Positions 7,870-35,805 of a stretch of 45,000 nt of DNA are shown here, piece after piece. Position numbers and translations under genes: made by a program. The DNA comes from Candidatus Bathyarchaeota archaeon (GTDB lineage Archaea > Thermoproteota > Bathyarchaeia > 40CM-2-53-6). Position 1 is the stretch's first letter. Each line of letters opens with the position of its first letter. The notes under the pieces were generated by a model. The model was not told where the DNA came from, did not search any database, and saw nothing but the letters and a program-made list of their open reading frames with translations. Location of the stretch: the NCBI GenBank assembly GCA_963833125.1, contig CAWHWX010000017.1, positions 1 through 45,000 on the forward strand, in the 5' to 3' direction.

Positions 7870-7988
7870 GGGCCGGTAGTTCAGCCTGGTATACCTAAAT
7901 CAACGAAGGGCCGAAGAACGTCCGGTTTGCAAGTCAACTAAATCGAAAGTCCGGAAGGTCGCGGGTCCAAATCCCGCCCGGTCCACCA
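7870..7988 (+). tRNA. tRNA-Ala(TGC) with two BHB introns (21/22: 7893-7915; 37/38: 7932-7949)
   Basis: Acceptor stem GGGCCGG/CCGGTCC with G3:U70, anticodon TGC at 7928-7930, encoded CCA. BHB helices are TGGT/GCCG and TTTG/CGAA. Confidence 0.93.
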
Positions 7989-20126: not shown

Positions 20127-20237
20127 AGCCCGGTGGTGTAGTGGACAGTTCACCCACAAAAGCATAGAGGGCTTTGGACCCTCCGACGGGAGTTCGAAAG
20201 GCAAATGAATTGCCCGAATTTCTCCCCCGGGCTACCA
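20127..20237 (+). tRNA. tRNA-Gln(TTG) with two BHB introns (D-loop: 20147-20159; 59/60: 20199-20220)
   Basis: A1:U72 acceptor stem AGCCCGG/CCGGGCT, anticodon arm GAGGG-CT-TTG-GA-CCCTC, encoded CCA. BHB helices are GTGG/CCAC and TTCG/CGAA. Confidence 0.93.
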
Positions 20238-28988: not shown

Positions 28989-29164
28989 GGGGCGGTGGTC
29001 CAGACCGCGAGTCAACCCCTCGTGGGGACATCTTGGTCTAAGATAGCGACCATATCGAATCGCCTTAAAACCGGTCTCGGGACCATGAAAATGAACGGCG
29101 GGAACACCGGTGATCGAGGGTTCAAAATGACTGAAAAGTCATGACATTCCCTCCCGCCCCACCA
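28989..29164 (+). tRNA. tRNA-Pro(CGG) with four BHB introns (29004-29031, 29045-29069, 29082-29104, 29127-29147)
   Basis: Acceptor stem GGGGCGG/CCGCCCC plus ACCA, anticodon CGG at 29078-29080. Removing four BHB-bounded inserts gives a 79-nt cloverleaf. Confidence 0.9.
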
Positions 29165-34214: not shown

Positions 34215-35000
34215 ATGGACCGTCCCCTCTACAGCCAGTTAGTTCAGTATTACGAACTCATTGAGAGCCGTGATTGGCGTAACGAGATGAGGCTAATCAG
34301 TTCAGTCCTACAGAAGCACAAATCAGAATCTGTAGTTGACTTGGGTTGCGGGACGGGGTATCACGTTAGAGCTCTGACAAAGATCGGCTTCAACGTAACT
34401 GGGGTCGATATTTCAAAACAGAATATTGAGTTCGCAAGGAAAAGAGCTGAAAAAGAGAGAACTCGGACGAGTTTTGTCATTGACAGCTACTATCATTATC
34501 AACCCCGTGAAAGGGTGGACGCGGCTCTCTGCCTGAACTGGTCGATTCCTGTACGAGATCATGAGGTCAAACGGTTTCTTGACAACGCAAACGCCATGCT
34601 TCGGCCCCGTGGCCTGCTGATTCTGGATTTCGAGAGGCGGTCGCAAATAGTTTGGGGGGATGTTGGTAAACCAATCGTTGATTCATGGAGGCAGAAGAAT
34701 CGACTGATCGTCAGAGTTTCCGTGGGACAAATGATCTCCAGCGTATTATGTTCGAGAGACGCCTACATTATCTATCATACTTCTTCCAGACCGAGCATAC
34801 CCAATGAAGCTTCGAGATACAAAGCCGCGCAACGCAGAGATATTGCTGAGGTTTACGTGGACTACTCTTATGTGCGGTTCTTTTCGTTAGCCGAGATGAG
34901 GCGTTTCGCGAAGCGGTCGGGCTTTAAAGTGTTGGGAAATTTCCTTCTACGGAGGAATAATTACAAACGAAACTATGCGGTACTTCAAAAGTTTCCATAA
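34215..35000 (+). CDS. Class I SAM-dependent methyltransferase
   Basis: VVDLGCGTG, GVDIS, LRPRGLLILD. Confidence 0.88.
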   Translation: MDRPLYSQLVQYYELIESRDWRNEMRLISSVLQKHKSESVVDLGCGTGYHVRALTKIGFNVTGVDISKQNIEFARKRAEKERTRTSFVIDSYYHYQPRERVDAALCLNWSIPVRDHEVKRFLDNANAMLRPRGLLILDFERRSQIVWGDVGKPIVDSWRQKNRLIVRVSVGQMISSVLCSRDAYIIYHTSSRPSIPNEASRYKAAQRRDIAEVYVDYSYVRFFSLAEMRRFAKRSGFKVLGNFLLRRNNYKRNYAVLQKFP

Positions 35001-35137
35001 GGTACTGGGATCCGGGTGGCATGACTCACGGCGAGATTAGGACCGCCCCTTGTCGTGGCCACTGGAAACGGTTTTCCGACCGAGCAACGAACTTATCTAG
35101 CGCCGTAGCGGTCAACCCTGTCGGTTCAAAGACTACT

Positions 35138-35283
35138 AGCGGGGTGGGGTAGCCAGGTTTAACCCGCAGAACGCTTGCGGACGGCTCATATCCTGGCGAG
35201 AAACCCTGAGATTGAGCTTAACGGCTCCTCAAGCGGTGGTTCGAAAGGCACAAAACGGCCCGAACATCCACCCCCCGCTACCA
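35138..35283 (+). tRNA. Initiator tRNA-Met(CAT) with four BHB introns (35170-35182, 35191-35202, 35213-35233, 35246-35266)
   Basis: A1:U72 acceptor stem AGCGGGG/CCCCGCT plus ACCA, anticodon CAT at 35187-35189. The spliced anticodon stem CAGGG/CCCTG restores the three initiator G:C pairs; mature length is 79 nt. Confidence 0.92.
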
Positions 35284-35577
35284 ACGTAGCAAATTCCTTG
35301 GGGAACAATTCAACGAAGCGCGGAGAGATTCCAGTCGAGCAAACAACCGCGGGGGAAACTCTGGTGTCAAAGTGCCGAAAAATGTTCGACCTCAATAGGC
35401 TCTATTTAGCTGGATGAGAAGCAGTTTCTATCTGAAAACGACAGTCTGCCTTGATTTTTACACTCTTCTGCGAAATTTTCATCCAGCATTCGGCCATATT
35501 GCGTTGATTAATAACATGGCGTTGTCTCAGTGGAGAAGAGTTTATTCCGGATGGTTCAGGTGGTTCTCCGATAACCC

Positions 35578-35805
35578 ATGTCATATATTGCGGTTCCGAG
35601 ACCTCCGATAGCGGCCACCTGCTATGTACCGGCACCATGCGCCATCCCACAGCCACCCGAAGTCTACTATCAACCACCGCCGCAAGCAGCGGCATATCAG
35701 CCACCCCCACAGACCTACCTATACCAACCACCCCCGGTTGCCTACAGTGTGGCGTCGCCACCTCAGGTCTACTATTACCAACCCCCAATGGTCAAGGTTC
35801 AGTAG
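35578..35805 (+). CDS. 75-aa Pro/Tyr/Gln-rich peptide with four YQPP repeats
   Basis: VYYQPPPQ, AYQPPPQ, LYQPPPV, YYYQPPM. Confidence 0.6.
   Translation: MSYIAVPRPPIAATCYVPAPCAIPQPPEVYYQPPPQAAAYQPPPQTYLYQPPPVAYSVASPPQVYYYQPPMVKVQ

Follow-up and report, generated by a model that had tools for sequence, protein, structure and literature searches.

Here we describe a tRNA gene that occupies 146 nt at positions 35138-35283 (+) of a 45,000-nt stretch of DNA, hereafter the window, which comprises positions 1 to 45,000 of the forward strand of contig C17 (CAWHWX010000017.1) in the Candidatus Bathyarchaeota archaeon assembly GCA_963833125.1 (G000). The gene is composed of five exons of 32, 8, 10, 12 and 17 nt and four inserts of 13, 12, 21 and 21 nt, all on the plus strand. 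Exon 1 (35138-35169) supplies the 5' strand of the acceptor stem, the D arm and anticodon-stem positions 27-29; it is followed by intron 1 at 29/30 (35170-35182) and by exon 2 (35183-35190), which spans positions 30-37 and carries the anticodon CAT. Intron 2 at 37/38 (35191-35202) leads to exon 3 (35203-35212; positions 38-47), intron 3 at 47/48 (35213-35233) to exon 4 (35234-35245; positions 48-59), and intron 4 at 59/60 (35246-35266) to exon 5 (35267-35283), which holds positions 60-73 and a genome-encoded CCA. With high confidence we conclude that a soil archaeon of the Bathyarchaeia has here a functional gene for initiator tRNA-Met, into which four short introns of the protein-spliced kind are inserted.

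When the gene was spliced in silico by a script working from these coordinates, ARAGORN called the 79-nt product as tRNA-Met(cat) over bases 1-79, with a canonical cloverleaf and four perfect stems; the unspliced gene received no call from ARAGORN, with intron mode on or off, or from the Rfam model RF00005. An earlier interpretation made from the letters and open reading frames of the window, here the sequence-only reading, had placed the exon and insert boundaries, and every one of them was exact. The initiator hallmarks that it had claimed are likewise present in the ARAGORN cloverleaf, namely A1:U72 and G29-G31:C39-C41, alongside the CAU anticodon. In archaea and eukaryotes the initiator is marked by A1:U72 and by a run of three G:C pairs at 29-31:39-41, and the presence of both makes it very improbable that the gene encodes an elongator tRNA-Met or tRNA-Ile2 (CAU), even though the CAT anticodon is common to all three. 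A separate CAT tRNA, a candidate elongator tRNA-Met recognized by eye and missed by our parser, lies at G000:C12:101744-101852 and has G1:C72 and a different anticodon stem, which also argues against that assignment; apart from the initiator, neither the ARAGORN calls nor the confident parses of the genome include a CAT tRNA.

The four inserts share one geometry, in which an exon tetramer that stops 2 nt short of the 5' junction faces, as its pairing partner, an intron tetramer that stops 2 nt short of the 3' junction. The register of this bulge-helix-bulge (BHB) motif is exact at all eight splice sites, each of which lies inside a 3-nt bulge. The central helices, with their 2-nt offsets, are as the sequence-only reading gave them: CCGC/GCGG for intron 1 (four of four pairs), CTCA/CGAG for intron 2 (three of four), TGAG/CTCA for intron 3 and TTCG/CGAA for intron 4. 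The strict form of the motif, designated hBHBh', has flanking helices on the exon side (h) and on the intron side (h') of at least 2 bp each (PMC7714728). Intron 3, with h of 2 bp and h' of 5 bp (inner helix GAGCT/GGCTC), and intron 4, with h of 5 bp formed by the T stem and h' of 3 bp (GGC/GCC), both have the strict form. Intron 1 as it stands in the window has only one outer and one inner pair, while orthologues with longer introns have two to three inner pairs. Intron 2 is a bulge-helix-loop whose outer helix is the anticodon stem; its h is 2 before splicing and 5 after it, and its h' of 1 amounts to no inner helix. The earlier claim of four BHB introns therefore holds in full for 47/48 and 59/60, whereas 29/30 and 37/38 are relaxed forms. 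At 37/38 and 59/60 the letters alone would allow a boundary one base to the left with the same product; the BHB register selects the positions of the sequence-only reading.

The gene was also scored with our own BHB-aware parser, which can follow a cloverleaf across BHB-compatible jumps, however many there are. Its score of 78 exceeds chance expectation: in the reversed (not complemented) genome, 1.97 Mb with both strands read, the best parse scored 59, and none of 193 parses reached 60. The four-intron parse was unchanged at intron penalties of 12, 18 and 24.

BLAST of the gene against 40 relatives, 22 of them of the same genus, found it in 14 of those 22; in twelve it is of the four-intron form, spanning 146-152 nt at 86-97% identity, and in the other two it has three introns. 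Parsing of 39 of 40 loci (L034, cut by the fetch window, was left out) yielded 24 distinct sequences: 14 with four introns, eight with three and two with only two. Exon 1 is identical in all 24, and the only exon differences anywhere are T54->C in the T loop of L018 and a C->T change in the T stem of L015; ACCA follows the gene in 23 of the 24. The introns differ in length and sequence and yet retain their helices. All four pairs of the central helix are present in each of the 20 distinct genes that have intron 1, the intron 3 helix is paired in 22 of 22, four central pairs occur in 22 of the 23 genes with intron 4, and intron 2 shows its pattern of three pairs and then a mismatch in 14 of 19. 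Furthermore, every one of the junctions is exactly empty in some distinct orthologue: 29/30 in four (L017-L020), 37/38 in five (L016, L018, L025, L030, L036), 47/48 in two (L014, L015) and 59/60 in one (L020). These two-, three- and four-intron forms of the same tRNA, in which each intron can be present or absent, constitute a natural series for studying intron gain.

From family to family the sequences of the inner helices differ greatly in introns 3 and 4, with the pairing always kept. In intron 3, 5 of 13 rows carry a compensatory CG->UA change. Covariation was counted in a MAFFT alignment over the 15 of 23 rows that aligned cleanly, genes lacking intron 1 or 2 being misaligned. In register, 96.6% of 580 cells pair in these 15 genes, as against 40.9-48.6% when the partners are slid by one to three columns, and compensatory double changes are found at four pairs. 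Within the genus the covariation is weak, as expected of close relatives: out of 500 shuffles, 24 equal or exceed the observed percentage paired and 18 the covariation score. The pairing evidence between families is the stronger of the two.

A pattern for an occupied 29/30 junction matched 19 stretches in one-genome-per-species records, 18 of them titled Bathyarchaeia, Bathyarchaeota or 'archaeon RBG_16_50_20' and one titled Acidiferrales bacterium. In a class-wide sample, 125 of 251 genomes match the gene at E <= 1e-5, and spans of four-intron length occur in this genus only. Half of the 251 Bathyarchaeia genomes give no match to the initiator gene.

The alternative that the locus is a decaying tRNA pseudogene with insertions, a normal initiator elsewhere doing the work, could draw on the silence of the standard finders, on the 87.8% completeness of the genome and on the two relaxed motifs. 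It is nevertheless very unlikely, given exons that are the same in 24 distinct sequences but for two single-base differences while the introns diverge, inserts in exact splice register whose helices co-vary, the same layout in relatives with complete genomes, G013 and G014 (100% complete) among them, and the lack of any other initiator-like sequence in the genome. The sequence-only reading had argued against a pseudogene on the ground that the initiator tRNA is normally essential; the comparison upholds it, in that the gene is conserved and not decaying, with near-invariant exons in the 24 distinct orthologues, 14 of them with four introns. Taken from the sequence comparisons, the gene is real, conserved, has four introns and is almost certainly functional.

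An artefact of assembly or binning in this metagenome-assembled genome (MAG) would be another source of inserts, and an estimated contamination of 7% and the presence of two near-duplicate contigs, C12 and C17, might seem to invite it. We give it next to no credence: the same four-intron gene is present in 12 other same-genus genomes, and the matching public records bear several sample-name prefixes (SPRUCE, MFD, RBG and others). Moreover, a search of public runs for the locus returned seven DNA runs with small word shares, and four of these (X1-X4) were inspected as short contigs only. A 112-nt contig of X1, a public soil run, covers 35188-35283 with 7 differences and runs into a flank of the C12 type; X2 gave nothing, and from X3 and X4 came exon 1 alone, belonging to initiator genes of other organisms. 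Exon joints are absent from the X1-X4 contigs, which are silent on expression.

The assembly comprises 3.07 Mb in 39 contigs. The sequence-only reading had raised the question of whether this is the genome's only initiator gene, and the answer is divided: a second copy exists at G000:C12:31530-31675 (-), 95% identical and with the same mature sequence, but it too has four introns. BLAST of the gene in the assembly found only this copy besides that of the window and no intron-poor initiator, and an uninterrupted anticodon arm is found nowhere in the genome. Collinearity of C12 with C17 extends over about 35 kb (window 1-35804 against G000:C12:580-32598) at 78-97% identity, with the initiator gene inverted between them; such near-duplicates would come from a large duplication or else from two relatives binned together.

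The genome also encodes candidate splicing machinery. Two EndA homologues were detected, at 84.1 and 52.3 bits, and RtcB is present at 574 bits. The EndA homologue on C34 (185 aa, G000:C34:61065-61622) resembles the catalytic partner in two-subunit enzymes; among solved structures it is closest to 3p1z_B (E 7.8e-40), which we take to be from Aeropyrum pernix. The homologue on C14 (190 aa, G000:C14:18442-19014) is 19% identical to the C34 protein and has a gap opposite the latter's His-bearing segment, as would be expected of a structural subunit. By homology, the catalytic-like and the His-less EndA protein would provide an endonuclease of a type ((alpha-beta)2 or epsilon2) that can cut relaxed, non-canonical motifs, and RtcB the ligase.

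A TATA-box-like element, CTTATCTA, lies at 35092-35099 (+), 39-46 nt upstream of the mature 5' end. The motif [CT]TTATCTA is found 29-60 nt upstream in 7 of 24 flanks (the window, the C12 copy, L002, L003, L007, L013 and L019), and we infer that the element serves as an archaeal promoter. The 146-nt coding region would probably be transcribed from this box, about 40 nt upstream. The precursor would then be cut eight times, at both ends of every intron and always 2 nt 3' of one strand of a central 4-bp helix, by a two-subunit crenarchaeal-type (alpha-beta)2 splicing endonuclease tolerant of relaxed motifs at non-canonical positions. RtcB would ligate the five exons, the CCA being already encoded. 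The sequences show the anatomy of the gene, its conservation, orthologues that lack each intron in turn and the enzyme genes; that splicing occurs, and in which order, we infer.

The order of splicing turns on how the motifs share bases. No base is shared among the four central helices, but the outer helices are in conflict: intron 3 requires C40 and C41, part of the anticodon stem that is the outer helix of intron 2, and G49 and G50, part of the T stem that is the outer helix of intron 4. In addition, C27 and U42-G43 are held by the central helices of introns 1 and 3, and A28-G29 lie in the 5' bulge of intron 1, so that all of these bases would be kept out of the anticodon stem. Costs of forcing each motif were computed for each splicing state by nearest-neighbour folding, a model that ignores proteins, tertiary contacts and modifications. 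The intron 4 motif costs 0.0 kcal/mol in every state, and its helix is in the minimum free energy (MFE) structure of every state. In the full precursor the motifs of introns 1 and 3 cost +3.4 kcal/mol each and that of intron 2 +5.9 kcal/mol; removal of intron 1 lowers the intron 2 cost to +0.5 kcal/mol, and the intron 3 cost rises to +9.1 kcal/mol without introns 1 and 2 and to +12.9 kcal/mol without intron 4 too.

The most likely order would be a partial one. Intron 4 could be removed at any time; introns 1 and 3 would be removed early, since anticodon-stem bases 27 and 42-43 are taken up by their central helices and a completed stem makes the intron 3 motif costly; and intron 2 would follow intron 1, because the restored anticodon stem is its outer helix. 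On the modelled energies the lowest-barrier path likewise has introns 1 and 3 leaving first and intron 2 after intron 1, as the sequence-only reading had supposed. That reading had held that four such introns imply ordered splicing, with the full stem around 37/38 probably forming only after the introns at 29/30 and 47/48 are gone. The folding of spliced intermediates favours removal of these two before 37/38, but 37/38 has two outer pairs (G30:C40 and G31:C39) already in the unspliced RNA, and ordered splicing, while reasonable and plausible on the modelled energies, is not implied.

A real four-intron gene might instead be spliced in no obligatory order, the endonuclease cutting each motif as the precursor breathes between folds. 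We consider this a serious contender, somewhat short of an even chance. All four non-overlapping central helices can be forced together at -45.6 kcal/mol against an MFE of -56.0 kcal/mol, intron 2 has its two outer pairs before any splicing, and the costs for introns 1 and 3 in the precursor are modest. However, forcing two outer pairs for all four introns gives -36.1 kcal/mol, intron 3 competing with the T stem for G49 and G50 and with intron 2 for C40; the intron 3 motif becomes expensive once the anticodon stem is restored; and ordered removal has been shown for a three-intron tRNA of Cyanidioschyzon merolae (PMC3728597).

The near-invariance of intron 2 (35191-35202) within the genus contrasts with the variability of the other three introns. 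The intron 2 hexamer CCTGGC is complementary to GCCAGG of the D loop (35152-35157), and the RNAfold MFE structure uses this helix in every state that contains intron 2; we estimate the chance probability of such a 6-mer match at about 0.13 and note it as a curiosity only.

Several findings weigh against a functional four-intron gene spliced in the order proposed. The motifs of introns 1 and 2 are weak in the window, the intron 2 helix is never in an unconstrained MFE structure, and its pairing probability is at most 0.25. The energy model gives no cloverleaf even for the mature tRNA, and the derived order is soft for that reason. The roles of the endonuclease subunits are assigned by homology alone, the public-run search returned no RNA run, and with a genome 87.8% complete a further initiator gene is possible. 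Also, BLAST finds no initiator gene in 8 of the 22 same-genus genomes (G003, G005, G008, G009, G010, G015, G016 and G020), one of which is 96% complete in 3 contigs. The 17-nt end motifs, allowed up to two mismatches, gave no real initiator match in G003, G005, G008, G015 or G016. In G003 the syntenic methyltransferase gene was found and the surrounding 19 kb contain no parsable tRNA. The initiator genes of these eight genomes may be still more disrupted. An end-motif match at L073 was rejected as chance, and three weak BLAST places were likewise rejected as initiators, two being no tRNA genes and the third being a tRNA-Gln(CTG) gene.

Archaeal tRNA genes have been stated to contain up to three introns (PMC4390854, 2015; PMC8450103, 2021), in reviews and in the tRNAscan-SE 2.0 paper, with some neighbouring introns having to come out one after another (PMC4390854, PMC8450103). 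Three are found in tRNA-Glu(UUC) of Pyrobaculum calidifontis and tRNA-Pro(UGG) of P. islandicum (PMC4390854, PMC8450103), and P. calidifontis is reported to have the most introns, 71 in 46 tRNA genes, the Thermoproteales as a whole having 0.84 per gene (PMC8450103). The present gene resembles those of the Thermoproteales in its short introns at canonical and non-canonical positions with BHB or relaxed BHB motifs, in the interdependence of neighbouring motifs, and in the two-subunit endonuclease and RtcB joining, here predicted from genes; that one intron must go before its neighbour's motif can form has already been published (PMC8450103, PMC3728597). It differs in having four introns against a maximum of three, in belonging to soil and peat Bathyarchaeia as opposed to hyperthermophiles, and in being the initiator. 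Four introns thus exceed the stated maximum in a tRNA that every cell requires to start translation.

Other systems are comparable in part. In the red alga C. merolae, reverse transcription PCR shows the 37/38 intron to be removed last, the same order as is suggested here, but that work concerns nuclear genes of a eukaryote, with at most three introns and in some cases a permuted order, and splicing has been shown by experiment where ours is sequence-based (PMC3728597). Among the soil Asgard archaea, in Atabeyarchaeia and Freyarchaeia, 92-95% of tRNA genes contain introns; these archaea belong to another phylum, and their 228 introns over three genomes are fewer per gene than here (PMC11291895). 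The split and tri-split tRNAs of Nanoarchaeum and Caldivirga have BHB-like junction motifs and use the same endonuclease, but they are joined in trans from separate transcripts, whereas the five exons here are collinear in 146 nt (PMC4390854). The mesophilic soil and peat host, together with the soil Asgard report, suggests that intron proliferation is a wider archaeal trait. Our literature search, which took in neither the supplements of PMC11291895 (Supplementary Data 4, maximum per gene) nor the tables of PMC8450103, found no report of a four-intron tRNA gene and nothing on tRNA introns in Bathyarchaeia. As far as can be told, the mechanism (BHB introns, EndA, RtcB) is known, and the intron count and the lineage are new.

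The remaining tRNA genes of the genome were surveyed with the same parser. This census admits perfect acceptor stems only and excludes acceptor-stem introns, genes without CCA and split or permuted genes, and it is a lower bound. Of 33 clusters scoring at least 60, ARAGORN confirmed 31, three of them intron-less genes on contig C28; the two others, both scoring 60, were dropped. All 28 parsable archaeal tRNA genes are interrupted, by 64 introns altogether (about 2.3 per gene): four introns in five genes (the two initiator copies, two copies of tRNA-Pro(CGG), and tRNA-Pro(GGG)), three in five, two in 11 and one in seven. At least 64 introns in 28 parsed genes is a density above the 71 in 46 of P. 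calidifontis (PMC8450103).

The window copy of tRNA-Pro(CGG) spans 176 nt (28989-29164, +) and is parsed with introns in the D loop and at 25/26, 37/38 and 59/60. A five-intron parse with a 5-nt exon was ruled out by the contiguous D arm of a distant orthologue (L067, in G025), which matches the four-intron parse with a single 28-nt D-loop intron; the parser itself turns to four at higher penalties. The interrupted layout occurs in all 19 parsable loci (17 relatives and the two assembly copies), parsed as four introns in eight and as five in 11. Four introns are therefore a property of the lineage and not of the initiator alone, because this layout recurs in every parsable locus. In this genome tRNA-Pro(GGG), at C16:326836-327018, was parsed with four introns, and a same-genus tRNA-Gln(CTG) (L075 231-393, G015:C48) was parsed with four introns at a score of 76.

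A more ambitious synthesis can be drawn from these results, which as a whole we hold to be doubtful. This genus would have the most intron-dense tRNA gene set described, with every parsable gene interrupted, an average of about 2.3 introns, four introns in at least three tRNA species and the former ceiling broken; the initiator introns would have been gained stepwise within one order, with two-, three- and four-intron forms surviving; splicing order would be obligatory, making the supply of initiator, and hence translation initiation, dependent on the activity of the splicing endonuclease; and intron 2 might be a built-in folding timer acting through its complementarity to the D loop.

ARAGORN and the Rfam tRNA model miss the initiator gene and at least nine other tRNA genes of this genome, and as a result the tRNA counts used for grading Bathyarchaeia MAGs are too low. 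A closed Bathy-6 genome has been reported with only 36 tRNA genes (PMC11697101). The window itself contains four tRNA genes with about twelve introns, of which Rfam sees only tRNA-Ala(TGC), a gene parsed with two introns at 7870-7988 (+); the fourth is tRNA-Gln(TTG), also with two introns, at 20127-20237 (+).

Elsewhere in the assembly, tRNA-Val(CAC) is present three times (C2, C3 and C16). Contig C28 carries three intron-less, bacterial-looking tRNA genes (34937-35013, 57281-57357 and 110482-110559), the only intron-free ones in the parser and ARAGORN census, and may be a contaminant contig.

The initiator gene lies in a 400-nt gap between an upstream methyltransferase gene (34215-35000, +) and, on the other side, an opposite-strand open reading frame without assigned function (35402-35788). 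Finally, the 59/60 introns of the initiator (35246-35266), of tRNA-Gln(TTG) (20199-20220) and of the G015 tRNA-Gln(CTG) (L075:361-381) all have the form AGG...CCCGAA, extended in the first two to AGGC...GCCCGAA. This resemblance exceeds what T-loop pairing needs and hints that introns of different tRNAs share an origin.
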